The position numbers and the translations under genes are program-made. From Candidatus Undinarchaeota archaeon (GTDB taxonomy: Archaea; SpSt-1190; JASMDC01): a stretch of DNA of 30,754 nucleotides. Of this stretch, positions 7,889 through 30,754 are shown piece by piece (within the stretch, counting starts at the first letter, position 1; every line of letters begins with the position of its first letter). The stretch spans positions 1 through 30,754 of the forward strand of contig CAZFHY010000027.1 of the NCBI GenBank assembly GCA_964519305.1, written 5' to 3'. The notes beneath the pieces are model-generated. The model was not told the origin of the DNA. It saw only the letters and a list, made by a program, of their open reading frames with translations, and did not search any database.

Positions 7889-7914
7889 TTCTGCTCCTCT
7901 CCAAGAGAGACAGT

Positions 7915-10900
7915 ATGGGGGGGAGACTCGTTCCGGGGAGTCCTGTTACACAGGTCATAGGGCACCTGCTCGTTGTATTTCTCCTCACGCTGCCCGCCAT
8001 CGCGGACGGTGCGAGCTGCAGTGATCAGCGCGAGCAGGCCCTCTCGGGAAGAGAGCTGACAGCGGATACAGCATCCCATCTGCTGAAAGAGGTAGCCCGC
8101 GGCAACGTTCTCGTGCTCCCGGACGGGCTCCTTCCGGAGGGGGATGAAGACGAGAGCATGCTCATCCTGCTGGAGGCCCTCGGGCTCGGGAAGGAGGTGG
8201 TCCCATCGTACACGACCATCGACGATCTCTCCTATGATGACGTGGACCGTGCCTATGTCGTGCTCATGTGCGACGCAGGTGATATCCTCGATCCGGACGG
8301 GAGACGGTTCTGCGCTGAGTGGTCCTTCACGGAGGACACGCCCATCTACACGGTACCCGTCTGCCTCGGCGACATGCTGCGGCCTGAGTACCTCAGGGAC
8401 GAGCTCACTACTGTCACCGAGCTCACACCTGAAGATAACCTATGCGACTTCAAGGTGACCAGCTACGACATATTCACCAAGGGCTTCGACACTGCGTTCG
8501 GGGACCTCGATGTCGCGGAATGGACCGCACGACGTGCCAAGGACCTGGTCTGGGACGACGGCTCGCTCGCCCGAAGGTGCCAGGAGTGCGATGCGTGCGC
8601 CGATAACACCGAGGAGTGCAGCTGTCCCAACTACCCCACCGCTTGTGATACGGCCCACTGCGCCAAGGAGGTCGTATACACGGCCGCACGGTCGGTGGAC
8701 GCCATAGGGATGCTCCGGTTGATGGGTCCACGAGTGTCCATGCACGTGGGAAGGTGTGAAGGTCTTGCGACCGAGCGGCGACGGAAATGCTACGCGGAGA
8801 AGACACGGCTAATGGCCGATCTTATGGGACGGTACGTGCTGGAGCTGGAGACCCTCATCTCCCACTCGCCCCTCATCAGATGCCGCGACCAGATACGTCG
8901 GATCATGGAGGACGACAACGCATGCGCCGCTTGCTTCGACCTTGCCATCGACTGCTACGAGAACAACCTTGGCCACCAGATAGTCCGGAGCAGGACGTCC
9001 CAGGAGGCGCTGGGGATTATGGAGGGCGCACTCCGTGAGGCAATGCCCTGGTTCTATCTGACACGTGATCTGGGGATGGCCGCAGTCACGGCCGGACAAG
9101 GATTGACCGATGCAACGGATGAGGACGAAGTAGCTCGAGCGGAATATTCGACACGGTATAATGCGATCCGCGCCTTCGGTCTTCGACAGAAGGAACGGGC
9201 GGAAGCGGCCTCGCGACTGTTCTTCGGTCTCTACTGCATGCGGTCGTGCGCTCTGGACCGGAACACCGGTACGATCGGGGCCGGTCCCGCTGGATGGATG
9301 CTGGAGCAGTTCTCGTCCCATGATCTACCGATGGCCCACCGCTTCGGGGGCAGATCGGATGCCACCGATGGGGGGGACGGCCTCGCGGAGGGAACGGTGG
9401 ACATCGGGGTGGCACTTGTGCTGGGCCCGGGCTTCCGCAAGGACGATGGCACGCTCGACCGGGAAGCGGTGGCACGCTGCCCCCGCGGACTACTGTCCTC
9501 CATGGCGCTCGGGGATGACGGGACAACGATCGCACAGCGCCAGGCCAAGGGGACACGAGGGCTCCCCTGGAAGGTCCACATGTCATCCCGGACATACCTC
9601 GCATGCCCGCACAACCAGCTCGCCGCTGGTGACGATGGCCCGACGGACCGGGCTATTCTGGACGTGATGCGACAGCTGTGCGAATCCGGGCCCTATGCCC
9701 GGGAGAAGGGCGCCTGCGCGTTCAACGGGAGACTGGCCGTGGGCGGTAGTGAGCGTGATACTACCTTCCAAACGGCCCTCTGGGGTGCTACCGGCGTGCT
9801 GCTGGACTCGACCCACAAGAGCTCGTTCAAATCCCGCATCGTGCACGAGCTGGTCCCTGATCCCGCAAAGATCCAGACCCGGGTCTTCGGAGTGGTCACC
9901 GCGTGCACCGCGCCGGACGAGGAACCGCTCATCGTGACCGTCGCTGGTGGTCCTATCCTCGCCCGTGGGGCTGACGGCTCTGAGACGCTCGACGAGCAGG
10001 GCGCGTGGACGCCGACAGACCGTCAGGGCCAAACGCTCTCCCCGGGCAGTCCGCCTTGGTTCTACACCATTCGGGACCTGGAGGGTCCGGTTGTGTCGGG
10101 ACGGGGCAGGTCGATCATAGAGGGACTCGGGCTCGAGGGAACAAACTACCCCGTCGTGTCCGACCTTGTGGTGCCTGGCGAGGAGCAGGTGAACCCGTAC
10201 TTCCGTGAGTTCGATCCTGCCCTCATGGCCGAGCTCCTCTACCGCCAGTCGGACCAGGCGCTGCAGGGTGTCGACGGTGGGTATTGCATGCACCTCTATA
10301 CGGGTGGGTATTCGAAGTCCGCTACGGGCGAGCTCCTCGGGCACGGGGCCACGCTCCTGTACACAGCTGGAGCGGCAAGCGTGGTCGCCGAGGTCACGGG
10401 ACACGGGAAGCTCGCGACGGAAGCGGGCACCGATGCTGTCCAGTATCTTGCGCGCAGTCCCTATTATTTGCCGATGCGTATCAATACTGGAGTGACCAAT
10501 ATCCCTGGCTACCTTTCCTCGAACCTGGCTCCGAAGCTCGCCGCCAGGTTCGGGACAGAGGTGGCCGAAGGGGCCGCGACGGCCAGCGCGAACGCGCTGC
10601 GACGGACGACTACCGAGCTTGCCGAGAAAGCCGGGGGGGAGACCATGGAGTTCGCGGCGAAGGTCACGACCGGCGAGACCGCGGAATCCGCGCTAGGGAT
10701 AGCACGTCTGGTCATCACTGAACCTGCTGACGACGCGCAGCGGGAAGTGGCCGAGCGATTGGGCAAGGGTCTTGACGACATGATGCGCAGGAGCATGGAG
10801 GTCGACCAGAGGTACGTGTTCAGATCAGCTGAGAACCTTGCCGGAGATACATGGACCAGTGGTGCCTTCACCGTGCCGAAGGAGGCAGGATGGTTCAAGT

Positions 10901-13900
10901 TCACCGATGATGCGCTGAAACACCTGAACACTCTGGATGACGCAGGGAGAGCGACCGTAGCAAACAAGCTCCAGGCCGTCGGTTTAGAGACAGAACAGGC
11001 CACTGGGCTCATGGCCGGCAACAACGCGCGGATGCCGAAGGGATTACTCGTTGGATCAAGAGAGCTCGGTACCGATATCGGTAAGGCAATCGGAGAGGCC
11101 CTCGAAGAACTGAACTCGGAGAAGGTCGCCAAAGAGATGATGGACGGCCTCGGTTCGATCCTCGCACGACCGGTGACCGGAACGGGCGGTAGGACGGAAT
11201 ACCTCCTCCTTCGCGAGGGATTCGATGCAATGGGCCCCGAGGGTCAGCGGTTGCTGAGACAGCAGATCGGTAACGAGGCCTTCGAACAGGTGAGGTCGGC
11301 CTTCGCGAAAGGAATGAAAGAAGCGGGCCCGTTCCCGGGCGATCCGGCCACCTTGACCCGGAAGGTGATCGATGCTCGGATAGATTTCTTTTCCAGGATG
11401 GACCCTCCCGGATCGGTCAGCAGAGCATCAGCCCTGAAGGCTGTCGCGAACACCATGGACCTCCGACACCTCGTTTCGCGGTTCTCCGACGGGGAAACAC
11501 TTCGTGCCGCGACGTACAGCTACATTGACGAGCTGCTTCCATCCATCGACGTGGGTGCGGTCTATGCCAAGCACCTCAATAAGGAGTTCATGGCGCGGGG
11601 CGGAAAGACCTTGACACCCGAGGCGTTGGAGGAGGCCACCTCCGCGGCCCACCTGAATTTCCAGCGTGAGATGGTGGACGGTCTCAACGCTATCCTTCTC
11701 GAAGCACATACAAAGCGGACCGGCCAGCGGATCGCTGCTCGTTTCGGTATCGCCGAGCCGGCAGCGGTGGACATGCTCAGGGACGTGGGTTTTGTCGTTC
11801 CCATCCGTGAGGCGCTCGAGCGTGTCTTTTCCAAGGAAGCGCTGTCGGGCGGCCAGCCCGCAGCACGGACCGTTGTTATGGAAGCGGTCGAGAAGGTGAA
11901 CGCCCAGGCATTGGACGGCGGACTTGACGTGATGGGCAAAGCGACCTCACTCACGGCCACTGAAGTGCTCCAGGACATGGGACTGGCCGTAGGTACTGCC
12001 GCAGGGATGACGAAGTACTCCTTGCGTCAGCGGGCCCTCCATTACAGCACCTGGCGCGGTCTCGCAAGACAGAGCCTCAACGAGGACTATGGTCTCGACT
12101 GGACCCAACCGCTGTTCTCGTACTCGGCGGACCTGTGGCGTCTTGCCCCAGAGGGCGGTGCGGCCGGAGGAAGGTTCCGGGACCGGGAGCGAGCGACCCT
12201 GCCACTAGCCGTGGCCGGTGTGTGCGCAGCGGAGGGTGATGATGCGGTCAAGATCGCCCCGAGATGCGGTGAAGGTGCTGACCGGGCCATCTGTGATGGC
12301 GAGTGGTCACCCGTACCACCGGACGACGAGCTCAACGCGCTACAGGATGCGGCCGTGCGCTCTGCAGGGGATTGCCTTGATACTGATCCCGAGGGGGAGT
12401 GCTTGGACGGTCTTGTCCGGGTCCTTCCCGATGGACGTTGTGTGCCCTTCTACCACGAGAGCGAGGTGGGATGGCTCGAGTACCTCGACGGTTATCTACG
12501 AGCACGAAGTTCGCTCCTTGTGCGCGTGCGCGACGATATCATTGCGCTCCGGAACGCGCTCGACCAACAGTGCGGACGTTGCCTGACCGACGTCCGCGTG
12601 CTCGAAGCGTCCTATTCGAGCTGCACGAGCTCTGACTTGGACACCCCACATCTCATCGGGGACGCCATCGCCGATCATGACGAGGAAACGCTGATCATCC
12701 ACCTCGCCGACGACCTCAGCTACGCTCGCGCTGCTGCCCTATGCACGGCCACGTGCACTCAATGGGAAGGGCTCGATCCGGGATCGTGTCCTCTTGTGAC
12801 CACTGTCGGTACATGCGGGACCGAAGGAGACGCGGTGGCCCCCGGCGCCTCAGGCACCGAGCCCGCACCCAGCGCAGAGGGTATCGCGACCTGTGTCCGC
12901 GATGTCCTCCGTGCCAAGCGCGCATGCACGCTGCGTGGTCTGCGTGCTTTCACCTCGAACGTCACATGGCACGGCGCGCCCACGGCCGAACTGGGCACCA
13001 ACCTCCGTCCCGTCATCATGCAGGAAGGTACTGATAATCCCTGTGGTGCCCTTGAGCGGCTGGACGAAATGGAACAGTTCCTTACCGCCTACCTGAAGAC
13101 CCTTCAGGGGATGACGATCGGGTGGGAGCGTTTGCAGCTCGCGTCCAAATGCACCGCCAACGCACCCTATCCCGACATGGACCCGTGCGCTTGCGTGCCC
13201 TTCCCCGAACCCGGTCAGGGCAACGATGATGCCTATCGCGCCCAAGTGGCCCTCTGGAAACCACGACACGAGGCCTGCATGGCCTTCGAGAGCGGAGAGG
13301 TCGCGGCCACGCTCTTCGAGGCGGCCGCTTACGCGGATTCTACAGAAATAGTCCTCGATGAGTTCACAATCCAACTCGAACAGCTCGTCATAGCCGCGCG
13401 TGGAGATCTCGAGCCGGGAGCGGCCGACCTGCTACGGGACCTTTACATGGACATGCCCGCTGACGCGCTTGGCGAGGATGCTGTCGCTCCCGTGGGGATG
13501 CTATGGGATATCGCGCATGACATGGTCGTGGAGGCTGACCAACAGATACCGTACGTGCTCTCGCCCAAGTACGGCCATGGCACTCTCGTAACGCTCCTAG
13601 ACGGCGAATGTCAGTGCACAGGGGGAGTTGGCACAGGATGCTTCCAAGGCATCCATGGACGCGAATCACCCGTTTGCACAGTCGGAAGTGACCTGGACGA
13701 GCAGTGTCTGGGCGACAGGATCGCTGATGTGCTCCGTGACGTTCCACTGGCAACGGTGAACGGCGCGGTGTTCGGTGATGAGGGGCAGGGAATAGTCCCG
13801 GGGAGCTGCACGTTCGCCTGTGGTAATCCTAGCACCGGACCGAACGAACAGGGTACCTTCCCCGCCTGCGTACGATGTCCTGAAGACATCTGGTCGGTGA

Positions 13901-16026
13901 ACCCGATCGACTGCGATGTAGAACGACCGTATCCCTTCGATGTCCTGGCCGACCGGACGGCCTTCATGATCAACGCAAGCTATTCTGGTCCGATACCCAT
14001 GGTATGTTCGCTCAAGGTCGCGGTCCGTGAACGGGAGATTGCACGTCGGTCCCTTCTCCAAGCGACGATCGCGTCAATAGCCTCGCTGGATGTCCGACGT
14101 ATCTTCCCTGACCCGGAGTGCTTCGACATCGAGGGGGGAGGTATGGATCCTTACGAACGCGTGTCTGAGGCGGTCTCATGTCAGGACGCATGCAGCATGT
14201 TCCGCTCACCAGGCGGTGTCCCGGGGAGCCTCTACGGTTATTGTCGCGCTTCGGTATCCGCTGACGGTACCGTAGCGGGCGAGTGTCACTGTGCCAGGGA
14301 TGACGATCCAGTAGGCGTTCATACGGGCAGAACGTGCCCTCTGCCCCAAGGCGCAGCCGTGTACCGCTCGGTGCAGGACCACTGCCGTGACGAGTATGGT
14401 TGCCGAGGGTTCACGAACGCGTTCAATGCGCAGGAGGGACGGTTCGCATGCCTGTGCAAAGGTATAGGCCCGTTGGACGTGGAGTTGGCGGATGCTGTTC
14501 GCGATGAGCTCTCCGACCTCCGGGTGGTCAGCAACATATTCGAGGTCGAGGGTGATCAAGTGGGACCTGATGGTCCTCACAGGGCTTTCCTCGGCGAGGA
14601 GGTGGTCGGGTGTGCGGAGTTGGAGAACACTGGTATGGGTACGTTCCGCGGAACTGTGACATCCGCCCTTGTGGACCGCAGGGGTCTCGTTGAGGGTGAA
14701 GAATCGGTTGACGAGGTCACGCTGTCGTCAGGTGACACAGTCGTAGTGTGCACGACACCTACAGAGGTGAGCGATAGTCTGCTCGGTTCCGGAGGAGCTG
14801 CGACCCTTGCGTTAAGGATGTCGGCGATGACAGGCGAGCGCTCGGTCCTCGAAGGTCGGACCTTGGGCACACCGCTCAGGGTCGCCTTTGGACAACCGGG
14901 GCTCGACGAAGCGCAGATCGAGGGCGACGTGAGCGATGACGCGACCACTGTTGGTGCGAGAGTGTACCCTGTGGCGGTCCTGAGGAACAACCGTAACAGT
15001 CCCCTGGATGCAATGGTCAAGGTCGCCTTGATAGACGAGCGTGGGCGCGTCCTTACGACCGAATCTATCCCCATCGCAGGTGTCCTGCCCGGAGAGTCGT
15101 TCACCGTGGAAGGTGGGGGTCATGATGTGCGTGTGGAGGATGTCGGGAAACGCATCAGGGCAAAGGTCACGGTACTCAACGATTTCGGTGTCCCGGTGCT
15201 CGATGAGACCGGTGGCCCCGGGATCAGAGTGGTCGCACCTACCATCATAGCGACCGAAGTGTCCTTCGTTGACGAGACCGAATCCCAGCGAGCGTCATCG
15301 ATCGGTCCATGTGATCCAGTATCCGTGAACGTCGTTCTTGAGAATCCAACGACCGCCATATTCTCAGGGACAGTGGACGTGGGACTACTGCACGAGCTGA
15401 GCGACACCTTGCTGGGGCTGACCCGGACACATATCACAATTGGTGCGGGCGACAGTGATGTCCTACTCTCATCACATAAAGTGCGCCCGGAGCGACAGGG
15501 AACGTTCCGCGCACATATTCGGGCCATTGGTGGGAACGACGTCCCGTGGCGACTAGTACCAGGACCGGCTGCACGAACAAGGCTCACCGTTCCCACAACG
15601 CATCCGTGCGAAGGAACTTCGACCGAGGACGTCTGGGAGGACGAGGGCGGTCCCGAGGTTCTGGAAGGTGCGGTCGATGCGAGCACGTTAGCCGGTCTAA
15701 TGGACGCTCCCGCATGGGTGCCGGAAACGGACGTGCCCGGGGATGGTACCGAAGAGGTGTCCTTGGACACGCCTTCTACCGACCAAGATCCTGAGGACGT
15801 AACCTGTCCTGACAATCCGCCCTCCGATCGGTACGACCTCGTCTACTGCACAGGCCGTGCATGCGTGACCCGGGAGGACATGAACGGCGGCAGGTACATG
15901 CGCATCGAGGGATGTTTCTGTCCGAATGGGATAACGCCCCGGATCGAAGAGACAGTCCATGGCAGCAGGCTCTCTGCAGAGACGGCCGCTTGCTGCGTTC
16001 CCTGCCACGCTTCCCGCGCCGGGTGA
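7915..16026 (+). CDS. Giant secreted Cys-rich protein (~2700 aa, paralog A) with a central Cys-free helical cassette, three C-terminal Ig/CARDB-like domains and a Cys-rich tail
   Basis: Uninterrupted 8.1-kb ORF. Signal peptide (HLLVVFLLTLPAIA) after ATG 7915, with a CTTAATT box at 7884-7890. Colinear similarity to the ORF at 23279. Confidence 0.85.
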   Translation: MGGRLVPGSPVTQVIGHLLVVFLLTLPAIADGASCSDQREQALSGRELTADTASHLLKEVARGNVLVLPDGLLPEGDEDESMLILLEALGLGKEVVPSYTTIDDLSYDDVDRAYVVLMCDAGDILDPDGRRFCAEWSFTEDTPIYTVPVCLGDMLRPEYLRDELTTVTELTPEDNLCDFKVTSYDIFTKGFDTAFGDLDVAEWTARRAKDLVWDDGSLARRCQECDACADNTEECSCPNYPTACDTAHCAKEVVYTAARSVDAIGMLRLMGPRVSMHVGRCEGLATERRRKCYAEKTRLMADLMGRYVLELETLISHSPLIRCRDQIRRIMEDDNACAACFDLAIDCYENNLGHQIVRSRTSQEALGIMEGALREAMPWFYLTRDLGMAAVTAGQGLTDATDEDEVARAEYSTRYNAIRAFGLRQKERAEAASRLFFGLYCMRSCALDRNTGTIGAGPAGWMLEQFSSHDLPMAHRFGGRSDATDGGDGLAEGTVDIGVALVLGPGFRKDDGTLDREAVARCPRGLLSSMALGDDGTTIAQRQAKGTRGLPWKVHMSSRTYLACPHNQLAAGDDGPTDRAILDVMRQLCESGPYAREKGACAFNGRLAVGGSERDTTFQTALWGATGVLLDSTHKSSFKSRIVHELVPDPAKIQTRVFGVVTACTAPDEEPLIVTVAGGPILARGADGSETLDEQGAWTPTDRQGQTLSPGSPPWFYTIRDLEGPVVSGRGRSIIEGLGLEGTNYPVVSDLVVPGEEQVNPYFREFDPALMAELLYRQSDQALQGVDGGYCMHLYTGGYSKSATGELLGHGATLLYTAGAASVVAEVTGHGKLATEAGTDAVQYLARSPYYLPMRINTGVTNIPGYLSSNLAPKLAARFGTEVAEGAATASANALRRTTTELAEKAGGETMEFAAKVTTGETAESALGIARLVITEPADDAQREVAERLGKGLDDMMRRSMEVDQRYVFRSAENLAGDTWTSGAFTVPKEAGWFKFTDDALKHLNTLDDAGRATVANKLQAVGLETEQATGLMAGNNARMPKGLLVGSRELGTDIGKAIGEALEELNSEKVAKEMMDGLGSILARPVTGTGGRTEYLLLREGFDAMGPEGQRLLRQQIGNEAFEQVRSAFAKGMKEAGPFPGDPATLTRKVIDARIDFFSRMDPPGSVSRASALKAVANTMDLRHLVSRFSDGETLRAATYSYIDELLPSIDVGAVYAKHLNKEFMARGGKTLTPEALEEATSAAHLNFQREMVDGLNAILLEAHTKRTGQRIAARFGIAEPAAVDMLRDVGFVVPIREALERVFSKEALSGGQPAARTVVMEAVEKVNAQALDGGLDVMGKATSLTATEVLQDMGLAVGTAAGMTKYSLRQRALHYSTWRGLARQSLNEDYGLDWTQPLFSYSADLWRLAPEGGAAGGRFRDRERATLPLAVAGVCAAEGDDAVKIAPRCGEGADRAICDGEWSPVPPDDELNALQDAAVRSAGDCLDTDPEGECLDGLVRVLPDGRCVPFYHESEVGWLEYLDGYLRARSSLLVRVRDDIIALRNALDQQCGRCLTDVRVLEASYSSCTSSDLDTPHLIGDAIADHDEETLIIHLADDLSYARAAALCTATCTQWEGLDPGSCPLVTTVGTCGTEGDAVAPGASGTEPAPSAEGIATCVRDVLRAKRACTLRGLRAFTSNVTWHGAPTAELGTNLRPVIMQEGTDNPCGALERLDEMEQFLTAYLKTLQGMTIGWERLQLASKCTANAPYPDMDPCACVPFPEPGQGNDDAYRAQVALWKPRHEACMAFESGEVAATLFEAAAYADSTEIVLDEFTIQLEQLVIAARGDLEPGAADLLRDLYMDMPADALGEDAVAPVGMLWDIAHDMVVEADQQIPYVLSPKYGHGTLVTLLDGECQCTGGVGTGCFQGIHGRESPVCTVGSDLDEQCLGDRIADVLRDVPLATVNGAVFGDEGQGIVPGSCTFACGNPSTGPNEQGTFPACVRCPEDIWSVNPIDCDVERPYPFDVLADRTAFMINASYSGPIPMVCSLKVAVREREIARRSLLQATIASIASLDVRRIFPDPECFDIEGGGMDPYERVSEAVSCQDACSMFRSPGGVPGSLYGYCRASVSADGTVAGECHCARDDDPVGVHTGRTCPLPQGAAVYRSVQDHCRDEYGCRGFTNAFNAQEGRFACLCKGIGPLDVELADAVRDELSDLRVVSNIFEVEGDQVGPDGPHRAFLGEEVVGCAELENTGMGTFRGTVTSALVDRRGLVEGEESVDEVTLSSGDTVVVCTTPTEVSDSLLGSGGAATLALRMSAMTGERSVLEGRTLGTPLRVAFGQPGLDEAQIEGDVSDDATTVGARVYPVAVLRNNRNSPLDAMVKVALIDERGRVLTTESIPIAGVLPGESFTVEGGGHDVRVEDVGKRIRAKVTVLNDFGVPVLDETGGPGIRVVAPTIIATEVSFVDETESQRASSIGPCDPVSVNVVLENPTTAIFSGTVDVGLLHELSDTLLGLTRTHITIGAGDSDVLLSSHKVRPERQGTFRAHIRAIGGNDVPWRLVPGPAARTRLTVPTTHPCEGTSTEDVWEDEGGPEVLEGAVDASTLAGLMDAPAWVPETDVPGDGTEEVSLDTPSTDQDPEDVTCPDNPPSDRYDLVYCTGRACVTREDMNGGRYMRIEGCFCPNGITPRIEETVHGSRLSAETAACCVPCHASRAG

Positions 16027-16034
16027 CGCTTAAC

Positions 16035-16042
16035 CTTAAATA
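16035..16042 (+). promoter_or_regulatory. Archaeal TATA box (CTTAAATA), probably leaderless transcript for the 16069-21191 gene pair
   Basis: Box ends 26 nt upstream of ATG 16069. Confidence 0.55.
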
Positions 16043-16068
16043 CTGCTAGTGCTCTATTCTTTCTTGGG

Positions 16069-18177: not shown

Positions 18178-18179
18178 AC

Positions 18180-21191: not shown

Positions 21192-21195
21192 AAGC

Positions 21196-22269: not shown

Positions 22270-22296
22270 GACGGTGTTCGCCGAGGCCGGGTGTTC

Positions 22297-22995: not shown

Positions 22996-23011
22996 GGCCT
23001 TTCCGACCTCC

Positions 23012-23026
23012 CGAAAACTATAAATA
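23012..23026. promoter_or_regulatory. TATA element readable on both strands (minus TATTTATA for nth; plus CGAAAAC-TATAAATA with a BRE-like flank)
   Basis: Lies 24-31 nt upstream of the nth ATG on the minus strand. A purine-rich BRE-like element precedes it on the plus strand. Confidence 0.55.
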
Positions 23027-23199
23027 CAAGGGCACCCGCCGTTCCTGAACGTGGACGGGCACGGGCGGTGCCACGTCTTGAAATGTAATACGGGCTCAGC
23101 GTCCGTTAAATCGCGTGAAAAGTAGTTTTCAGGCGAAAGTACCGAAATAAACCTCGAAACTTCTCTAACTGGCCTGAGCGGGGCACGCTCCGTGCTTTG

Positions 23200-23214
23200 G
23201 CAAAACTATTTAAA
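23200..23214 (+). promoter_or_regulatory. BRE + TATA box (GCAAAAC-TATTTAAA) for the second giant gene
   Basis: Canonical archaeal layout, followed by a GAGGGGG SD at 23263-23269 and TTG at 23279. Confidence 0.65.
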
Positions 23215-23278
23215 CTCCACAACCCATAGTATCAACTAGACAGAACTATATGTTGTAACTGCGAGGGGGTAAAAAGTC

Positions 23279-26200
23279 TTGTTTAAAAAGGACGGACGGA
23301 TGGAGATAGTGACCATCCTAGCAATCATCCTGTCCCTTTCCCTGGTATTGGCGGACGAAACGACGTCATCGGGAAAGGGCTGTCTTGAGGTGATGCGACC
23401 GCTCATGCAACAGCTTGGAGCGGGGACGATCGAGGTGGAAGCGCTCCAGACCGCAGTGTTCTCCAATCCCGATCTTCATTACGTGTACCTGGACTCCGAG
23501 GGTGATTTCGATCCCACGTTCAAGCAGGACATCTTCTTTGGCCTGAACCCCCAAGGCATCAGTCATCTCGACATATCCCTCGATAACATCGATCGGCTCT
23601 ATGCCCTTAAGATATGCAGTCTCGTGGACGCAGCCCAAGGGGACCCCGCTTGTGGCTGGCTGAACATCGATCCGGAGGATACGAGCGACGATAGTAAGCC
23701 CACGAACATATATGTCCCCTTCTGCTTCATGCAGGACGGGGCGGACGGGGGTCCGGACGAAGTAACCTTCTGGGAGCTCATGGAGGAGAACCGGTTCCCG
23801 TGCAAGAAATGGAAGACTGAGACGGAGAATGGTGAGGAGTACTCCGTATGCGCGGAACGGCTCGAGGCACCCGCAGGGCCGGGAGCCGCCGATCACGTAG
23901 CCGATGCACTTAGCTTCGACTTCTACGGTGGAGAGAAGGAAGGATTCAAGGAGCGCGCAGCCGTCATGGAGGCCGACGAGTTCCGTGAGGTAGTCTCAAC
24001 GCTCGCCACCCTATTTGCCTATGAATGGGCAGATATAAACAGGGAGAGCCTGAAAGGCACTCTCGGGCCCTGCGATAGCCAGACCGGCGATCTGCAGAAG
24101 GACTGCTACTTCAACCAGGCATGGGAGCTCTATAATGCAGTTTACGACACCTACACTACACATGTCATGCTCTTTGCAGGCTGGCCGTTGTCCCGGTGCG
24201 TCGATATCACCGTGGATGTGCTAAAGAACGAGGAGCGGTGCGACGAGTGCTTCGATCTGGCAATAGACTGCTACGAGAAGATCACGCTCAAGGCCGTCAC
24301 CCGGGACAAGATGTCCCAGAACGCGGCAGGGTTCACACAGGGGCTCGCCTCGGAGCTGACCTATGGTGTCACTGATATCGCCCGTATGACCGCGGACCTG
24401 CTCTCGGGCGGGAAGGAGGAGGCCGATATAGCCTCACGTGTGTTCTTCGGCACGGTGTGCATGCATCATTGCAAGATGACCAAGCAGCGCAATCCATTCG
24501 CAAGGGGCTCGTCAAAGTGGATGACGGACAGCGCTGATGACAAGGACGTCTCAGAGCTCATAACCGGTACGGCCATCTCCGAGTGGGGACGAGAGAACCA
24601 GGCCGAGATGGTGACCTTGGGAGTACCACTCATCCTTGGCCCCCGTTTCTTCAAGTGCAAGGAGGACGAGTACCGGTACGATTGCAGTCAATGGGAATTG
24701 GACGTTGACAAGCTCAAGGCATGTCCACGCAACCTCCTGCGGAACACCGCCGTTGAGACCAAGACCTATGACGCGGTCAAGAAACCGCGTATCTCCGACG
24801 GAGAGCTCAAGCTCCCCTGGCTCATCACGCTCAACTCCAAGGTGTTCGCGACCTGCCCTATCAATGAGGCGAAGCCGTCTGATGCCGCGGACGAGAAGGA
24901 ACAGGCCGTGTACGGTATAAAGGAACAGTACTGTGAGATATCCGGGCTCAAAGAGAACGAGTGTGCGTTCGATGGTAAGAAGGCCCTCGGCACTTCCGAA
25001 GGCGGAGGGTTCCTGAGCGGCGTCGTGGGATTCTTCACAGGCACCCTGTTGGACAGCTACGACGAGAGCGCGTTCAAGTCGCGCCGCCTCTGGCCTGCCC
25101 AGCTATCTCAACAAGAGGTCGAGAGCTATGCCTTCGGTGTAGTGTTGGATTGCACCCGGGAGGTCGACGAGCCACACGTCGTTACCTATATGGGTGCCCC
25201 CATCCTCAAGTCGGGCAGGAAGGCGGAGTTCGAGACGACGAAGGTGAACCGTGACGGAAAGGACGTTGAGATAATCCGCGCGCTGACCCTTGAGAACCTT
25301 CTTGGTAGCTTCACGGGAATCAACAACGATCTCAAGAGCCCGTACCGTGCTGAGCTCGAAGCGAAACCTGTGATCACGTTCATCGATACGTCGGCGATAG
25401 ATGGCGTTGAAGGATTCCTGCCCGTCATCGATCCCAACGTCAACCGGGCCAAGAATCCCGCGGACTTCCTCGTGGGCCAGGCCGCCGAGGCGACCATGTC
25501 TGACTCCAAGTACGTCTGGGCCTTCCAGCCCGAGCTTCTAATGAGCATTATCTACAACCCGCCCTCCAACGGTCTGCTCGGTAAGTGCCGGGAGAACGGC
25601 GGGAAGTGCTGTCATATCTATACAGGCGGATTCTCAGAGGAGGCCGGTCTCGGAAAGTTCCTCGGTCACGCGACCGGGTTCATAATCTCCATCGGATATG
25701 GCGGACCCCTCTCCAAGATCCACAAGGCCGCTACCGGTGCCGTTGGCGGTGCCGTGAAGAAGGGTGCGACAAAGGTGGCGGGGAGCGTCATCAACAAGGT
25801 GGCACCCAAGTGGGCCGTGAAGCACGCGGCCAATGTCGCTGCGAAGAAGGCCGCGAAGGAAGCTGCAGAACTGCTGTCCAAGGAACTTGTTGAAGCAGGT
25901 TCTAAACGGGTAGCGAAACAGCTGGTGAAGGAGGCCGCTCAAGAGGCAGCAGAGGCCGCCGCGAAGAAGGCTGCGAAGGCTGCAGGTCAACGTGCCTGGA
26001 AGATGGCCGCAAAAGCAGCGGCCAAGGAGGCCAGCGAGAGCGCCATCAAGGAGGCTGCTGAGCACGCGGCCAAGCGTCTTGGCAAGAAGATGATCTCCGG
26101 TGGTATGAAGTACATGAAGAACCAACGCGTCATCCACCGCGGTATCGTCGTCGCAAGTTCGATGATCGATCCCTCCGTGGGTGTCGACTGGACCCAGTCC

Positions 26201-29200
26201 TTCTTCAAGTACAGCGCTGAGCTTTACCGGTTCGGGAACACGCCCGACCTTTCCAAGCTCGCTGACGAGATCATGAACACACCTACGGACAACACCGCAG
26301 GAGTGTGCACCGATGGGAAGAAGAGCGAGGTCATTATCGAGAAGGAATGCAACTTCGCGTCCGGTGACCCGCGCTCGAAGCTGTGTACCGAGGACGCGAT
26401 CTCAGCCCAGATAGTCATGGACGCCTCGTTCGCGGCAGCATATCGCAAGGCCATCGTCGGTCCTGCGTCCTGTACGTCCGGCGATGACTGCGTCGACGTT
26501 GGCGGTGGGAGGAAGCGGCGTCTCATCTATGAGAACGGTAGCTGTGCGCCATTCGTCCACGCTAACAAGCGGGCCCACCTGGAGTACATCAAGGCCTACA
26601 TGGACGACCGTGTGACCTTCCTCAAGACGATCAAGACAACGATCACCGACCTCAAGGGAGCGCTGAACAAGCAGTGTCAGAGCTGCAACACCATGGTCAA
26701 TAGTATCAAGAATACCTATGGGGGCTGCCAGATCACAACATCCAACTACCGGATGGCCATCGGTAAGAAGACCCTGCACGAGGCCCTCCTCGAGAACCAC
26801 CCCGCAGCAGAGGTGGTGAAGAACAAGAAGCGATACTTCTCCATCGGCGACCTGATCAACAAGGGCGTTAACAGCGACGGTATCCGGGGACTGCTCGCCG
26901 ACGAGGTGGACTACCGGATGGCCGTTCAGCTGTGCACCCTGCCCGTATGCGAGCTCTACAAGCCTTCGCCCATCGGCGAGGCCTGGCTCTCAGACTCGTC
27001 CTTCAAGGGATGCCCGCTCTACAAGCAGGGGAGCGCGTGCTTCGCGACCTCAACAGAGATGGCATCCAGCTCGTCCGGTGTCGCGGTCGACCAGGAGTGG
27101 AAGGCCCTTCCCGACACCACCGTGGATAACATCTTCAACTCCAGGTCCGTGATGCCCCACACCCCCGCAGTAGAGAAGTGCATCCGGGACGTGCTCAAGG
27201 CCAAGAACGCCTGCACAGCGCTCGGTATGCGGATGTTCACCGTGACGGCAGACTCGGTCACCGACGAGGGTGTGCCCCAGTTCACCATCGGCGACCAGAA
27301 CCCTGCCACCGACGATCCCTGCGACGTGGGTGTCAAGCTCACGAAGATGATCGACTACCTCGACGGCTATATCCGCCACCAGATCGACTTCCAGATCAAG
27401 ATGGGCCATTATGTCGAGGGGCTCGAGTGCCTGGACAAGTCCAGCAGGCCAGAGGAGTACTCCTGCGACTGCCAGCCGCTGGACAATCCATCGGCCGCGT
27501 GGGCCCGCAAGGCCCAGTACTGTCTTGAGCTCAAGGACCTCCAGCAGCAGGTCGAGGAGACCATGCAGGAGAACACGTTCGCGGACGTGACATCCCAGGA
27601 CTTCGAGATCATGACCAAGCAGTTGGTCATGGCCATCATCGGCGACCTCGACAAGCGCTACTTCAAGATCGTCCAGGACACCTACCGTACCGAGGCGACC
27701 AAGGTGACCACCGACGAGGGATCGTTCGACACGTTCTACACGCTCAACGACGTTGCCAAGGACAAGACCTACCCGCAGAACATCAGCGCCCTCTGGGACA
27801 CTGCTTTCCGCTACAAGTTCAACCTCAAGAACAAGCTGCCCTACCGCATCACTCCGTGGCGTGAGGGTCGTGGCGGGGAGAAGTGCTTCTGCGAGGACAA
27901 GGACAACAAGGGCTGCTTCTTTGCAGGCCTGAAGGCCGGTGTCACCTGCGACGATATGCACGACAATGACGGTGACGAGGACACACCTTCCTTCTACGAT
28001 AAGAAGGGTAGTGGTGAGATCAGGGACGAGGACGCCGGATGCTATTCGTTCTACCCGTCAGATATCTGGGACGGCAAGGCATGGAAGCCGTTCTTCCAGA
28101 GCGAGATATCAGGGTACGGCATCAAGAAGGCCGATGGCAGCGCCATCACTCTGGACCCGAGCAACTGCATCTACACCTGTGAGTCCCAGAAGGTCGCTGG
28201 TGGCGAGCTCGAGGCTTGCGTGAAGTGTGACGAGCGCGGGTGTACTGGCGAGGACATGCCGTTCCTCACCGTCGAGGACCGTAACAACTTCAACGTCACG
28301 GCCTCCTTCCCCAAGGAGGTTCCGATGCTCTGCAGCTTCGGACTCAAGACAACCTCCAAGCAGGACCTGGCGGGAGCACCAAAGCTCATCGACGCGTATC
28401 GCAACCTTGCCGCCCTGTTCGACGATCTTGGCAGGCTCTTCCCCGAGCCTGTGTGCTTCGATTACCAGAACGAGGGTGGTGCGAGCGGAGGCCAGACGTC
28501 AGCGCAGACCTGCACGGAGGCATGCAACAAGTTCTCGATCCCGGAGAAGAAGCGCCAGCTCTTCTACGGATTCTGTAAGGCGGTCATCACAAAGGACGGT
28601 GTCACGGTCTCCGGTCAGTGCTATTGTGCTTCCGAGTCGGATCCCGAGGGCACAGCGGTCTCAGACGGGACCGGGAAGCCCATCGACTGCCAGCTCCCCA
28701 ACTCTGACGACTACTACAAGAAACTCTATCAATGCTGTGTGGAGCGCTACAACTGCGAGAACCTTCTCAACAAGCCCACGTCCTCGGGCGAAGGTTTCCT
28801 GTGCAAGTGCACGCCCAGCTATTACGAGATAGATCCCGCCGAGTGCGGTGTCGGATCCGGTGTATCCCTCATCGTCCAAGGGGCAGGTTTCGAGGTCGCT
28901 GGCGAGGAAGGCAAGCGTCGAGCGTTCCTTGGCGAGCCCATCCGCGGATACGTCAAGATCAAGAACGAGGGCACGTCGCCGTTCTCCGGTTCGGTGAACC
29001 TCGACCTCGTTGACGAGTACGGTTCATCGGTGAGCAAGGGCGCAGAGATATGTTCCGAGGAGCCTACGTGCGATGCCGGTGGCGAACTCTCACTGACAAA
29101 GTCCAGAATGGGCAAGTACTCCCAGATCAACATCGGTAACGGGCGCATCCTCAACATAACCGTGAAGGACGTATCGAGCTCATGCGAGGCATCGGTCGAG

Positions 29201-30754
29201 TACGAGCTCACATCGCCCGGTGGTAAGTACAAGGGGACCGCCAACTTACCCATCGACCGGTGCGTCTCTACCAAGCTGGCCGAGATCTTCGTGCTCTCAG
29301 CAGAGATGCCCGAGGCATCGACGAGCCAGTGCGATGCTCTCCTCAGGACAGGCTCGACCATCAAGCTAAAGGTCTACAAGGAGACCCATGAGGGTGCCTG
29401 CAAGCGCAAGCTACAGTGCAAGGACCCGCCGACAGAGAGCGAAGTGAAGGAACGGGTGCGGGAGTTCTGCAAGGCCCACATCTACCAGACCCAGGGCGGA
29501 GAGAACGCACTGGGCCCTGGTAAGGCCAAGTTGTTCTACACGCCCGAGATGACCATCACAAATCTCATGCTTGGCTCAGATAACAGAGGGACCCTGCGCA
29601 TCCGTGCTGCTGCGGTCATGGGCAAACAGGCCTACCTCAGCCCACCCTTCGTGTCCGGTATGCAGCTCCTCATCGAGAGAGGCGATCCCGGGTTCGAGGA
29701 TGCCTTGTTCGATGGCGAGGTCGCTACCGTGGGCGGTCAGCAGGTATCGTTCCCCGGTGCCGAGGTGCGTGCGGTCGTCAAGGTCAAGAACACCTTCAAC
29801 GCGGAGTTCGCCGGGGTCGTGATGATCCGTATCGTTGATGGCCAGGGCCTTGAGGTCGACCGCTACACGATGGACTTCGGCTCCAACCCGATAGCTGTGG
29901 GTGCAGTGGGCGAAGCGGCCACCGATTACATAATGTTCACGCCAGAGGACCTGAACAAGGAGTACCGCGTCTCGATCACCATGTGGACCGAGGCCGGCCA
30001 GGTGCTGGTCCAGGACTGGCTCGGGGATCAGACATATCCAAAGGCCCGTCTTTCAGTGGTCCAGCCACAGATGGACTTCACTGATGCCTTCTTCCAGCTA
30101 TCTCAGGACTCAGCGCGCAGCGGGTCCGCCGCAGTGGGCGAGAACGTGATGGCGCTCGTGGTGCCGAAGAACAGGATGCCCCTCAACTTCGAGGGTCTGA
30201 TCAACATCTCCGTGTTCCACGCGAACAAGCTCATGGGCGAGGCCCAGACATCCCTTGTGGTCGACGCCAACTCCGAGTCGAGCACGACCTTCGAGAGCGA
30301 CTCGAGCTTCACGATCCCGACCGTGGGTACCTATTACATCCATGTGGGCGTGGAGGACGCCAACGGATACCCGTGGTACCGTGGCGTGCTACCTATCCAG
30401 GACTTCCCTGATGCACGGCTCGTTGGCCGGCGAGGACAGCCCGGTGACGGCGGTGAGGACGGCGACGACGACGGTATGCCCGACGACTGGGAGGAGGACA
30501 ACGGCCTCGACACGTCGACGGACGACTCGACGCTCGACCCTGACGGCGACGGACTGCTCAACGAGGATGAGTACGAGTACGGTACCGATCCCAACGACGC
30601 GGACACCGACGGTGACGGGTTCAGCGATGGTGCCGAGATAACTGCCGGGACCGATCCCAACAATGAGAACAGTTATCCGACGGACGTGGACGGCGATGGC
30701 ATGCACGATCCGTGGGAGCAGGAGAACGGCCTCGATATCACACGGAACGATGCT
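23279..30754 (+). CDS. Giant secreted Cys-rich protein (>2490 aa, paralog B), 3'-truncated by the window edge and missing from the ORF track
   Basis: Read by hand: TTG 23279 (or ATG 23300) gives MFKKDGRMEIVTILAIILSLSLVLA/DETT, and the frame stays open to 30754 (...ENGLDITRNDA). It shares many motifs in order with paralog A. Confidence 0.9.
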   Translation, partial: MFKKDGRMEIVTILAIILSLSLVLADETTSSGKGCLEVMRPLMQQLGAGTIEVEALQTAVFSNPDLHYVYLDSEGDFDPTFKQDIFFGLNPQGISHLDISLDNIDRLYALKICSLVDAAQGDPACGWLNIDPEDTSDDSKPTNIYVPFCFMQDGADGGPDEVTFWELMEENRFPCKKWKTETENGEEYSVCAERLEAPAGPGAADHVADALSFDFYGGEKEGFKERAAVMEADEFREVVSTLATLFAYEWADINRESLKGTLGPCDSQTGDLQKDCYFNQAWELYNAVYDTYTTHVMLFAGWPLSRCVDITVDVLKNEERCDECFDLAIDCYEKITLKAVTRDKMSQNAAGFTQGLASELTYGVTDIARMTADLLSGGKEEADIASRVFFGTVCMHHCKMTKQRNPFARGSSKWMTDSADDKDVSELITGTAISEWGRENQAEMVTLGVPLILGPRFFKCKEDEYRYDCSQWELDVDKLKACPRNLLRNTAVETKTYDAVKKPRISDGELKLPWLITLNSKVFATCPINEAKPSDAADEKEQAVYGIKEQYCEISGLKENECAFDGKKALGTSEGGGFLSGVVGFFTGTLLDSYDESAFKSRRLWPAQLSQQEVESYAFGVVLDCTREVDEPHVVTYMGAPILKSGRKAEFETTKVNRDGKDVEIIRALTLENLLGSFTGINNDLKSPYRAELEAKPVITFIDTSAIDGVEGFLPVIDPNVNRAKNPADFLVGQAAEATMSDSKYVWAFQPELLMSIIYNPPSNGLLGKCRENGGKCCHIYTGGFSEEAGLGKFLGHATGFIISIGYGGPLSKIHKAATGAVGGAVKKGATKVAGSVINKVAPKWAVKHAANVAAKKAAKEAAELLSKELVEAGSKRVAKQLVKEAAQEAAEAAAKKAAKAAGQRAWKMAAKAAAKEASESAIKEAAEHAAKRLGKKMISGGMKYMKNQRVIHRGIVVASSMIDPSVGVDWTQSFFKYSAELYRFGNTPDLSKLADEIMNTPTDNTAGVCTDGKKSEVIIEKECNFASGDPRSKLCTEDAISAQIVMDASFAAAYRKAIVGPASCTSGDDCVDVGGGRKRRLIYENGSCAPFVHANKRAHLEYIKAYMDDRVTFLKTIKTTITDLKGALNKQCQSCNTMVNSIKNTYGGCQITTSNYRMAIGKKTLHEALLENHPAAEVVKNKKRYFSIGDLINKGVNSDGIRGLLADEVDYRMAVQLCTLPVCELYKPSPIGEAWLSDSSFKGCPLYKQGSACFATSTEMASSSSGVAVDQEWKALPDTTVDNIFNSRSVMPHTPAVEKCIRDVLKAKNACTALGMRMFTVTADSVTDEGVPQFTIGDQNPATDDPCDVGVKLTKMIDYLDGYIRHQIDFQIKMGHYVEGLECLDKSSRPEEYSCDCQPLDNPSAAWARKAQYCLELKDLQQQVEETMQENTFADVTSQDFEIMTKQLVMAIIGDLDKRYFKIVQDTYRTEATKVTTDEGSFDTFYTLNDVAKDKTYPQNISALWDTAFRYKFNLKNKLPYRITPWREGRGGEKCFCEDKDNKGCFFAGLKAGVTCDDMHDNDGDEDTPSFYDKKGSGEIRDEDAGCYSFYPSDIWDGKAWKPFFQSEISGYGIKKADGSAITLDPSNCIYTCESQKVAGGELEACVKCDERGCTGEDMPFLTVEDRNNFNVTASFPKEVPMLCSFGLKTTSKQDLAGAPKLIDAYRNLAALFDDLGRLFPEPVCFDYQNEGGASGGQTSAQTCTEACNKFSIPEKKRQLFYGFCKAVITKDGVTVSGQCYCASESDPEGTAVSDGTGKPIDCQLPNSDDYYKKLYQCCVERYNCENLLNKPTSSGEGFLCKCTPSYYEIDPAECGVGSGVSLIVQGAGFEVAGEEGKRRAFLGEPIRGYVKIKNEGTSPFSGSVNLDLVDEYGSSVSKGAEICSEEPTCDAGGELSLTKSRMGKYSQINIGNGRILNITVKDVSSSCEASVEYELTSPGGKYKGTANLPIDRCVSTKLAEIFVLSAEMPEASTSQCDALLRTGSTIKLKVYKETHEGACKRKLQCKDPPTESEVKERVREFCKAHIYQTQGGENALGPGKAKLFYTPEMTITNLMLGSDNRGTLRIRAAAVMGKQAYLSPPFVSGMQLLIERGDPGFEDALFDGEVATVGGQQVSFPGAEVRAVVKVKNTFNAEFAGVVMIRIVDGQGLEVDRYTMDFGSNPIAVGAVGEAATDYIMFTPEDLNKEYRVSITMWTEAGQVLVQDWLGDQTYPKARLSVVQPQMDFTDAFFQLSQDSARSGSAAVGENVMALVVPKNRMPLNFEGLINISVFHANKLMGEAQTSLVVDANSESSTTFESDSSFTIPTVGTYYIHVGVEDANGYPWYRGVLPIQDFPDARLVGRRGQPGDGGEDGDDDGMPDDWEEDNGLDTSTDDSTLDPDGDGLLNEDEYEYGTDPNDADTDGDGFSDGAEITAGTDPNNENSYPTDVDGDGMHDPWEQENGLDITRNDA
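25811..26101 (+). repeat. Ala/Lys/Glu-rich low-complexity helical repeat region (AAKKAAKEAA-type) within paralog B
   Basis: GCGAAGAAGGCYGCGAAGG at 25841 and 25961; AGCACGCGGCCAA at 25821 and 26061. Confidence 0.7.
30458..30754 (+). repeat. Thrombospondin type-3-like (DxDGDG) Ca2+-binding repeats in paralog B
   Basis: DGDDDGMPDDWEEDNGLD, DPDGDGLLNEDEYEYGTDPNDADTDGDGFSDGAE, and DVDGDGMHDPWEQENGLD. Confidence 0.85.

Follow-up and report, generated by a model that had tools for sequence, protein, structure and literature searches.

The stretch of DNA analyzed here (the window, 30,754 nucleotides of contig CAZFHY010000027.1 from a Candidatus Undinarchaeota archaeon) carries two giant, cysteine-rich genes, A and B, whose products share long conserved regions and differ completely at one internal site. 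The original prediction read them as a pair of paralogous secreted scaffolds with exchangeable Cys-free cassettes, a candidate polymorphic cargo or cell-contact system. The locus thus raises the question of whether the divergent centers are exchanged between otherwise conserved proteins or are inherited with them, and of what such proteins may do at the cell surface.

The reading frame of A is uninterrupted, with a GTG at 7855 and an ATG at 7915, and ends at 16026. That of B has no stop codon between 23279 and the end of the window, and an N-run follows in the contig after base 30754. The likely start of B is the ATG at 23300 (MEIV...), the position at which both the ortholog in a second species (G001) and the sequence from another assembly (P0022), which provides a complete B of 2,786 aa, begin. 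Pairwise BLASTP aligned A and B in three colinear segments, of 1,034 aa (25% identity; E value, 2e-69), 646 aa (28% identity; E value, 7e-50), and 300 aa (26% identity; E value, 2e-14), altogether ~1,980 residues, and the predicted long-range paralogy was thereby confirmed. Signal peptides and a Cys content of about 3 to 4.5% agree with the earlier description of the proteins as secreted and disulfide stabilized. The features identified are listed in Table 1.

Table 1. Positions and supporting evidence for features of the A and B loci in the window
Feature	Positions	Strand	Basis
Paralog A, giant secreted Cys-rich protein, 2,703 aa from ATG 7915	7915..16026	+	ORF
A signal peptide, Sec-type, MGGRLV...LPAIA	7915..8004	+	Read by eye from sequence
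A N-terminal Cys-rich scaffold	8005..10284	+	Aligns with B 262-846 (E value, 7e-50) and with C
A left border motif CMHLYTGGYS...LGHG	10285..10350	+	Conserved in 10/10 aligned sequences
A Cys-free center, Cys811 to Cys1457 (numbered from GTG 7855)	10285..12225	+	Cys spacing
A right border GMTKY...YGLDWTQPLFSYSADLWR...AGVC	12001..12225	+	A/B BLASTP, alignment, switch in P0006 at ~1385
A C-terminal Cys-rich scaffold, to RAFLGE	12226..14598	+	Versus B, E value 2e-69
A beta-rich, Cys-poor tail	14599..15804	+	Beta strands at model end, beta periodicity
A family-specific C-terminal Cys-rich domain, ~73 aa	15805..16023	+	phmmer, alignment
d1A, 702 aa, class-III/prepilin-like signal and C-terminal transthyretin-like domain	16069..18177	+	Sequence, profile matches
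d2A, secreted, Cys-rich, ~1,000 aa	18171..21191	+	ORF, overlaps end of d1A
Paralog B, cut by window end and N-run	23300..30754	+	ORF, ortholog starts
B Cys-free center, Cys778 to Cys1010 (numbered from 23279)	25610..26308	+	Cys spacing
B start of TSP3 calcium-binding repeat array	30458..30754	+	PF18884, E value 2.5e-9

The supposed pair proved to be a trio, as the genome encodes a third paralog, C (3,129 aa), on contig C24. A family HMM run against this genome matched A, C, and B (as two pieces, one on each side of the gap) and nothing else; additional or orphan copies of individual parts are absent from the genome. The C-terminal Cys-rich domain likewise matched only these three when the genome was searched with phmmer. 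All three paralogs are retained in both species. The A orthologs share 81% identity, with a dN/dS of 0.166 for the whole gene, 0.149 for the N-terminal scaffold, and 0.132 for the C-terminal scaffold; the value for B was 0.089. Between the two species, whole-gene dN/dS ranged from 0.05 to 0.20 for the three giants, for the four neighboring genes d1A, d2A, d1B, and d2B, and for the gene upstream of C, and all are real, maintained genes. Among 1.84 billion representative proteins searched, four gave a match, three of them true relatives; the family was found in this lineage only and was present in 2 of 41 related genomes. All four loci recovered in a metagenome scan belonged to G001 (99.8 to 100% identity), and so the scan added no diversity. 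The locus was detected in eight DNA sequencing runs from two studies, in marine or seawater metagenomes; no RNA runs with the locus were listed, which is not evidence either way.

Database comparisons placed very little of these proteins in known families. Pfam and NCBIfam searches of the whole giants gave no match beyond the TSP3 repeats of B (PF18884), and Pfam searches of A, B, and C cut into 33 overlapping 400-aa tiles returned only TSP3 and an overlapping calcium-binding model, again in the B tail. Within the window the PF18884 match scored 37.2 bits against a gathering cutoff of 25, and the array resumes beyond the gap (131 bits; E value, 9.8e-39). There is weak evidence that the beta-rich tail of A is Ig/CARDB-like, the basis cited being a match of repeat protein P0020 to family profile positions 881 to 934 (E value, 2e-5). 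No adhesin or lectin domain was recognizable by Pfam or NCBIfam in the giants or in d2, a PDB profile search with the C-terminal scaffold gave no matches, and an ESM Atlas search with fragment P0008 gave no usable match. A search of a library of open-access papers found no description of the A/B/C family or of a large-genome Undinarchaeia-like lineage.

At a homologous site, A, B, and C each carry a long Cys-free stretch, of 646, 232, and 797 aa, respectively. As originally described, it lies between conserved borders: CxHxYTGG(Y/F)S..LGH on the left and G(V/L)DWTQ..F.Y.A.L.R...VC on the right were found in all 10 aligned sequences. When the Cys positions were shuffled, a gap as long as that in A occurred in 0 of 200,000 permutations (mean largest gap, 164). 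The cores of A and B showed no BLAST similarity, in keeping with the claim that they are unrelated, and those of A and C gave a marginal match (E value, 0.006). Self-BLAST identified no internal repeats in the centers. The B center is rich in Ala and Lys, with a pI of 10 to 11 inside an acidic protein (pI ~4.4); the C center is acidic (pI 4.6). Helix propensity and the 100-degree hydrophobic moment were higher in the center than in the flanks, and the description of an internal helical region was accurate in that the center is Cys-free, helix-prone, entirely different between paralogs, and enclosed by conserved borders. The center is not, as had been supposed, the sole Cys-poor part of an otherwise Cys-rich protein, as Cys gaps of 187 aa in A and 659 aa in the complete B occur in the beta-rich tail. 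Of the 55 Cys-rich giant ORFs of the genome, 5 have internal Cys-free stretches of at least 400 aa, a count that includes C and leaves out A, which falls just below the 3% Cys cutoff. The possibility that the center loops through the cytoplasm, with a membrane pass on either side, was rejected on inspection by eye, the border segments having neither the length nor the apolar character that transmembrane helices need.

A and B each lie in an operon-like block with two further genes, d1 and d2. Only 43 nt separate the stop codon of A from the start of d1, d1 and d2 overlap (the start of d2A is probably the ATG at 18180), and both blocks have the same order in G001. A TATA-like box is present in the interval between A and d1, and d1 and d2 may therefore be transcribed from a promoter separate from that of A. 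The corresponding genes of the two blocks share 35% (d1A and d1B) and 42% (d2A and d2B) identity, and dN/dS was 0.103 for d1A and 0.048 for d2A. BLASTP (E value of 1e-8 or better) identified 21 d1-like and 22 d2-like ORFs in the genome, nearly all of them in adjacent pairs; the d1/d2 pair thus recurs ~20 times, often beside other giant Cys-rich genes. The genome encodes 88 ORFs of at least 1,200 aa, which make up 14% of its length; a d1/d2 pair is found within 10 kb of 23 of these but not of the other 65. Paralog C has no adjacent pair, and the third of the close pairs is found by itself on contig C6, so linkage between giant and d1/d2 genes is not universal. A co-phylogeny of the three giants and the three close pairs carried no signal, the distances being near-star. 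In a complex prediction, the d1A ectodomain and the C-terminal domain of A scored 0.00, with the fold of the partner uncertain, which is evidence neither way.

The N terminus of d1A consists of R-A-Q followed by a hydrophobic stretch, and a class-III motif of R-[GA]-Q with ~20 hydrophobic residues was found in 19 of 20 d1 paralogs (R-G-S in the other). Pfam pilin N-terminal models matched none of the 20 at an E value of 1 or better, such short models often missing divergent pilins; the class-III reading of d1 therefore rests on the short motif, and the region could instead be a plain signal-anchor. Matches to CarboxypepD_reg were present in 14 of the 20 family members. PDB profile searches yielded only weak transthyretin-like matches for d1 and only weak Ig-like matches for d2. 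The genome also encodes prepilin peptidases (PF01478, four matches above the Pfam cutoff) and PF00437 ATPases (six matches above the cutoff and one below), one of which adjoins a d2/d1 pair on contig C2.

Comparison of orthologs bears directly on the question of exchange. Within each orthogroup the centers were all homologous and colinear, with lengths of 604, 604, 604, and 605 aa for A, 193, 193, and 179 aa for B, and 757 aa for each of three C sequences. Between the two species there were 0 gaps in 571 (A), 161 (B), and 721 (C) codons, and dN/dS in the center was 0.227, 0.075, and 0.127, respectively, compared with 0.08 to 0.18 in the flanks. The center is under purifying selection, and that of B is as constrained as the B scaffold. 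From the fixed length, the lack of indels, and this selection, it follows that the central regions of homologs are conserved rather than swapped, the outcome that the original prediction had itself named as speaking against it. No nucleotide-level conversion tracts were found between the paralogs, which share no nucleotide identity at the borders. The center is a paralog-specific, vertically inherited module and the fastest-diverging part of the protein, not a swappable cassette.

The proposal that a conserved chassis delivers an internal module exchanged at the border motifs, in the manner of polymorphic toxins, draws on the conservation of the borders across all paralogs around unalignable cores and on one protein. 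This metagenomic A-type sequence, P0006, shares 63 to 65% identity with other A-type proteins in the N-terminal part, 33 to 34% in the center, and 82 to 88% after the right border, with sharp switches at approximately residues 815 and 1385 (the two borders) and discordant segment trees. As the single exception among the family members, it favors the exchange reading and shows that discontinuities can fall at the borders, which leaves some room for rare exchange. However, its center is homologous to and colinear with that of A over the full length (35% identity; E value, 1e-90) and is not an unrelated cassette, and the mosaic could instead be a chimeric metagenome assembly. No comparable drop was seen between B and its distant ortholog P0018 (38 to 44% identity in the center, 42 to 65% in the flanks). 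Polymorphic toxin systems such as Rhs and CDI combine a conserved large secreted scaffold with a sharply delimited variable region beside conserved junction motifs, the variable toxin module normally being C-terminal. A, B, and C share the large, putatively secreted scaffold and the delimited region at junction motifs, but their variable region is internal and is not exchanged among orthologs, and the genome contains no orphan cassettes. No toxin domain was found in the three proteins by Pfam and NCBIfam searches of whole sequences or by Pfam searches of tiles, and there is no immunity-like neighbor, the genes downstream being the conserved d1 and d2. With the centers colinear, free of indels between species, and under purifying selection, we regard a polymorphic cargo or cassette system as highly improbable.

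Two other readings concern function. In one, the center would be a membrane-active module, similar to alpha-pore-forming or translocation domains, kept inside a shell locked by disulfides until contact brings about its release or its insertion into a target membrane. Its Cys-free, amphipathic, helical character and the strongly basic B center are in line with this, but the acidic center of C means that charge is not common to all centers, and no transmembrane-length hydrophobic hairpin was evident by eye. AlphaFold2 models of A residues 770 to 1470 (mean pLDDT, 46.2; almost all helix by DSSP) and 1383 to 2290 (mean pLDDT, 48.3) were too weak for fold assignment. The model of the C-terminal scaffold contained long helices (51 and 40 residues) and beta strands at its end, with pLDDT of 68 to 90 only at model residues 160 to 270; the block of this scaffold with the highest conservation spans ~260 aa. 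Foldseek searches of the PDB with both models returned no match at an E value of 0.001 or better; the rows obtained, which include alpha-pore-forming toxin folds, had E values of 0.18 or worse and probabilities of at most 0.13 and came from low-pLDDT models. XaxA, SmhB, and AhlB, chains of tripartite alpha-pore-forming toxins, appeared among the weak rows for both models, but with E values of 0.4 to 1.0, probabilities of at most 0.08, and TM scores of at most 0.15; as the models also have a mean pLDDT below 50, these rows carry no weight. A wider comparison of the C-terminal scaffold with VIA-align gave generic helical bundles only (Z of at most 7.4). A membrane-active center is in our view improbable. 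In the other reading, the giants would have no specific partner and would be structural components of the envelope or matrix, such as those of a sheath, of extracellular fibers, or of a lattice associated with an S-layer; the center would be a spacer that sets length, and d1 and d2 simply co-expressed envelope proteins. The great number of giant Cys-rich ORFs noted above fits such a role, as do the long Cys-free stretches in other giants and purifying selection throughout, with no sign of an arms race between the two species. A pure spacer would, however, tolerate indels, none of which were seen, and the center of B is constrained to the same degree as its scaffold. Retention of three diverged paralogs in both species further suggests distinct rather than redundant roles. 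A purely structural function is judged rather unlikely.

The explanation that we prefer is that A, B, and C, three ancient paralogs of a giant (2,700 to 3,100 aa), secreted, disulfide-rich family which was detected in this archaeal genus only, belong to pilin-linked assemblies as paralog-specific proteins of the surface or of cell contact and are not polymorphic cargo; taken as a whole, we give it about an even chance of being correct. Of the two functions first suggested for the locus, cell contact stays plausible and polymorphic cargo is not supported. Each protein runs from a signal peptide through a Cys-rich N-terminal scaffold to the Cys-free, predicted all-helical center, placed at one fixed site between the borders, and on through a Cys-rich, probably largely helical C-terminal scaffold and a beta-rich tail (with TSP3 repeats in B) to a Cys-rich end domain. 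Most probably, a prepilin peptidase would process d1, which would be anchored in the membrane or assembled from it, much as modular pilins or the subunits of a bindosome are. Outside the cell it would be joined by d2 and the giant protein, the latter forming the distal end and making contact with a partner cell or particle, and the helical center may serve as a spacer or binding surface specific to each paralog. Because both fold models are of low confidence, function is inferred, and secretion, d1 processing, complex formation, and the adhesion role are put forward in that sense; the paralogy and layout of the proteins, their conservation and selection, the gene linkage, and the restricted taxonomic range are demonstrated.

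Known systems offer partial parallels. Bacterial type IV pilus tip complexes consist of minor pilins and a large non-pilin adhesin, PilY1/PilC. The logic is the same in that a pilin-like gene lies beside genes for large, apparently Sec-exported non-pilin proteins suited to surface display, but PDB profile searches of d1 and d2 gave no sequence or fold relationship, the giant partner is here two to three times larger and disulfide-rich, and the system is multiplied ~20-fold. Among archaeal pilin-like proteins, bindosome subunits are described in a review as large proteins with pilin-type processing sites, and substrates of the prepilin peptidase EppA as marked by a conserved +1 glutamine (PMC4371748). 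The d1 proteins resemble these in their pilin-type N terminus (R-[GA]-Q and a hydrophobic stretch) on a body of 600 to 700 aa, in a genome that encodes prepilin peptidases and several PilB-type ATPases. In contrast to bindosome subunits, d1 lacks homology to substrate-binding proteins, has CarboxypepD_reg/transthyretin-like as its only named domain, and is paired with d2 and, at this locus, with a giant Cys-rich protein. For Vampirococcus lugosii, an example of the episymbiotic or predatory prokaryotes with small cells, the published account proposes that giant surface proteins, which contain WD40, PKD, and saposin interaction domains, act with type IV pili in host recognition and attachment (PMC8080830). 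A, B, and C differ in having no known interaction domains, and with a genome of 3.6 Mb an episymbiotic lifestyle is not established.

A broader and rather doubtful proposal is that the giant-d1-d2 block exemplifies an archaeal display system not described before, in which pilin-like d1 and its secreted partner would mount interchangeable, disulfide-rich giants at the cell surface. Multiplied ~20-fold, and together with the giant genes, such a system would account for much of the expansion of a lineage with genomes of 3.6 to 3.8 Mb in a class of otherwise 0.6- to 1.2-Mb archaea; the A/B/C center would be its paralog-specific business end, with rare recombination at the borders that would reshuffle halves of the gene, as in P0006.

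As the locus demonstrates, conserved borders around unalignable cores in two paralogs do not prove that the cores are exchanged; the orthologs reveal the centers to be old, fixed, and constrained. With no known domain over ~2,000 residues, the family would, if its structure were solved, probably yield new folds. If the assemblies are as proposed, these genes would be part of the surface toolkit of a large-genome archaeon among tiny-genome relatives, and would illustrate how an archaeal cell can display very large, disulfide-rich proteins by means of pilin-type export signals.

BLASTP comparison of A and B identified three colinear segments of 1034 aa (25% identity; E value, 2e−69), 646 aa (28% identity; E value, 7e−50) and 300 aa (26% identity; E value, 2e−14), bearing out the original prediction that these giant secreted Cys-rich proteins are paralogous along most of their length. 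They had been described as a pair; this is corrected by a third paralog, C (3129 aa, with a Cys-free centre of 797 aa), on contig C24. At full length, known from another assembly (protein P0022), B has 2786 aa. The 1366-aa neighbor of C combines tandem CGDG.C..GEC-type modules, Ig-like domains, an acidic coiled-coil-like stretch and a C-terminal membrane anchor, and is also kept in G001, the genus's one other species (dN/dS, 0.131). The window takes up the first 30,754 of the 40,126 bases in its contig, and the product of its leftmost listed gene looks like another surface protein.

Features of the giant-protein loci and related genes in the genome (G000)
Feature	Location	Strand	Remarks
662-aa protein with signal peptide and C-terminal membrane anchor	window 1463-3451	minus	without Pfam family
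Two adjacent Lrp/AsnC-type regulator genes	window 5837-7200	minus	
AIR-synthase-related (PurM/HypE-like) gene	window 6782-7888	plus	stops at 7888, shortly ahead of A start
Paralog A	window 7855-16026 (open)	plus	ATG 7915 yields Sec-like signal peptide
Paralog B	window 23279 to window end (open)	plus	likely start ATG 23300
N-run	window 30755 onward (contig C27)		splits B within TSP3 repeat array
Remainder of B (further TSP3 repeats and Cys-rich end domain)	L011:102-1061		different frame, past N-run
1366-aa protein with 114 Cys	G000:C24:36274-40422 (L010:12275-16375)	minus	immediately upstream of paralog C
Third d1-then-d2 pair, A/B subtype	G000:C6:123454-128429		32-39% identical to A and B pairs
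Prepilin-peptidase (PF01478) match	G000:C2:158777-159040		in long open frame, 432 aa
Prepilin-peptidase (PF01478) match	G000:C5:1472-1762		in long open frame, 395 aa

A and B have Cys-free stretches at homologous sites (646 and 232 aa, respectively), as had been claimed, and when Cys positions were shuffled 200,000 times the gap in A was never reached. The description of a Cys-free region within an otherwise Cys-rich protein holds for this centre, but it is not the sole Cys-poor part, as the beta-rich tails are Cys-poor too. Of the 55 Cys-rich giant ORFs in the genome, 5 contain internal Cys-free stretches of at least 400 aa, a count that takes in C and leaves out A, which falls just below the 3% Cys cut-off. 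The predicted conservation of the border motifs was confirmed in all 10 aligned family sequences, and the cores of A and B, said to be unrelated, could not be aligned; those of A and C were nearly unalignable (E value, 0.006). By composition and hydrophobic periodicity, the centres look like amphipathic helices and the tails rich in beta structure. The AF2 model of A residues 770 to 1470, built from a 10-sequence alignment, was almost all helix but of low confidence (mean pLDDT, 46), and together these results support a helix-prone internal region, as proposed.

Whether the centres behave as exchangeable cassettes was a separate matter. Measured from YTGG to DWTQ, they spanned 604 aa in three A-type proteins and 605 aa in a fourth, 193 aa in two B-type proteins and 179 aa in a third, and 757 aa in each of three C-type proteins, and were homologous inside each group. 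Between G000 and G001 the centres carried no gaps, and codon comparisons gave a centre dN/dS of 0.227 for A (571 codons; flanks, 0.13 to 0.18), 0.075 for B (161 codons; flanks, 0.08 to 0.09) and 0.127 for C (721 codons; flanks, 0.08 to 0.11). A family HMM found no additional copies or fragments of the family in G000. No shared nucleotide tracts were identified at the borders between paralogs (longest exact common words, 14 to 21 nt), and BLASTN matches between paralogs were confined to the N scaffold, the Cys-rich flank preceding the centre. The group-fixed lengths, the absence of gaps and the lack of further genomic copies speak against exchangeable cassettes; the centres are conserved rather than swapped in homologs, the result that the original prediction had itself named as its refutation. 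On the evidence available, the centres are not exchanged. Each of the three centre types is ancient and belongs to one paralog, with constraint on its sequence and, to a striking degree, on its length. A polymorphic-toxin-like system, as suggested earlier, failed its defining tests.

A rival reading, rare cassette exchange, bears on one metagenomic A-type protein, P0006, which was compared segment-wise with the three other A-type proteins. Its N scaffold shared 63 to 65% identity with them (segment-tree branch, 0.40, basal), its centre 33 to 34% (branch, 1.88) and the sequence past the right border 82 to 88% (branch, 0.07, inside the crown), with the switches in similarity lying ∼40 residues or less from both border motifs. 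P0006 thus looks like either a recombinant with border junctions or a chimeric assembly. No comparable step was seen in the distant B-type ortholog P0018, in which the centre shared 38 to 44% identity versus 42 to 65% for the flanks. In two other rival readings, the centre is membrane-active, or the proteins are purely structural components of the envelope. Alongside the predicted amphipathic helices stands a charge that varies by paralog: the B centre is Ala/Lys-rich with a pI of 10 to 11 (whole B, 4.4), the A centre near neutral to basic, and the C centre acidic. For A residues 1383 to 2290, AF2 (mean pLDDT, 48) predicted terminal beta strands and reached a pLDDT of 68 to 90 only for a long-helix bundle (helices of 51 and 40 residues); fold searches with these low-confidence models (mean pLDDT, 46 and 48) returned no specific match.

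Searches of Pfam and NCBIfam with whole proteins and 33 overlapping tiles gave zero matches for A and C and, for B, matches limited to the TSP3 repeats of the tail. A profile of the C scaffold, the Cys-rich flank following the centre, matched no PDB sequences and, against 1.84 billion representative proteins, four proteins at an E value of 0.001 or better. One A-type protein, one B-type protein and a fragment of the B type were genuine relatives; the remaining hit was an unrelated repeat protein that matched only the Ig-like end of the profile. Word-based searches covering 5.8 billion proteins identified four A-type clusters (100, 84, 81 and 67% identity), one C-type cluster (91%) and two full-length B-type clusters (100 and 51%), the remaining 23 matches of the B-type search being to TSP3 repeats only. 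The family was present in just two of 41 related genomes, G000 and G001, the latter with all three paralogs in identical arrangement, and no matches were found in the 15 other genomes of the class (0.6 to 1.2 Mb). A JGI metagenome scan recovered four loci, each 99.8 to 100% identical to G001 genes. No published description was found among the open-access papers searched, and the family is new to the libraries searched.

NCBI labels on orthologs of the window's large genes point to MAGs of Candidatus Undinarchaeales, and sequencing runs containing the locus DNA were marine or seawater metagenomes. The genome (3.63 Mb; completeness, 99.8%; contamination, 4.3%) contains 88 ORFs of at least 1200 aa, counted stop to stop on contigs C1 to C42, which make up 14% of its length; the longest has 8478 aa, and 56 have at least 3% Cys. 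Genomes of the genus measure 3.6 to 3.8 Mb, against 0.6 to 1.2 Mb for the 15 other sampled genomes of the class.

A and B are each followed by a gene pair, d1 (with a class-III/prepilin-like signal) and d2 (secreted, Cys-rich). The stop of A lies 43 nt from d1A (702 aa), which overlaps d2A (∼1000 aa); d1B and d2B, past the window end, are 35% and 42% identical to these. Both blocks are kept in G001, and the dN/dS values of all four genes (0.05 to 0.20) indicate purifying selection. The 43-nt spacer (window 16027-16068) holds a TATA-box-like CTTAACCTTAAATACTG, which might give d1 and d2 a promoter of their own. Some 90 nt ahead of its ATG, B has a TATTTAAA element. BLASTP identified 21 d1-like and 22 d2-like ORFs in G000, nearly always as adjacent pairs, with similar numbers in G001 and none in 59 other genomes; 23 of the 88 giant ORFs lie within 10 kb of such a pair. 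Paralog C has no adjoining pair, and the third close pair, on contig C6, stands alone, the nearest 6 kb holding no giant gene, and is a possible partner of C.

An R-[GA]-Q start followed by ∼20 hydrophobic residues was present in 19 of 20 d1 paralogs, and a CarboxypepD_reg/transthyretin-like domain at the C terminus in 14 of 20; Pfam pilin models matched none of the 20. Above cut-off, the genome has four prepilin-peptidase (PF01478) matches and six to PilB/FlaI-type ATPases, one of which adjoins a d2/d1 pair on contig C2. In a review, a conserved +1 glutamine marks the substrates of EppA-type prepilin peptidases, which are described as "much larger" and as needing this residue (PMC4371748); the two long PF01478 frames recall these enzymes. 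Complex prediction for d1A with the A C-terminal domain gave no verdict.

We interpret A, B and C as three giant extracellular proteins of one lineage-specific family that diverged from each other long ago. Among the nearest functional analogies to the giant-d1-d2 arrangement are bacterial pilus tip complexes. Others are archaeal class-III-signal surface proteins, including the Sulfolobus bindosome, composed of large proteins having pilin-type processing sites according to the same review (PMC4371748), and, for A, B and C themselves, the giant surface proteins of Vampirococcus, among small-cell episymbionts (PMC8080830). We infer secretion and adhesion, as well as the processing of d1 and the formation of a complex. 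Each giant protein would act with d1, as a pilin-like anchor or assembly protein, and d2, as a secreted partner, in a cell-surface contact structure, with the Cys-free centre as a helical module that would be fixed and specific to its paralog.
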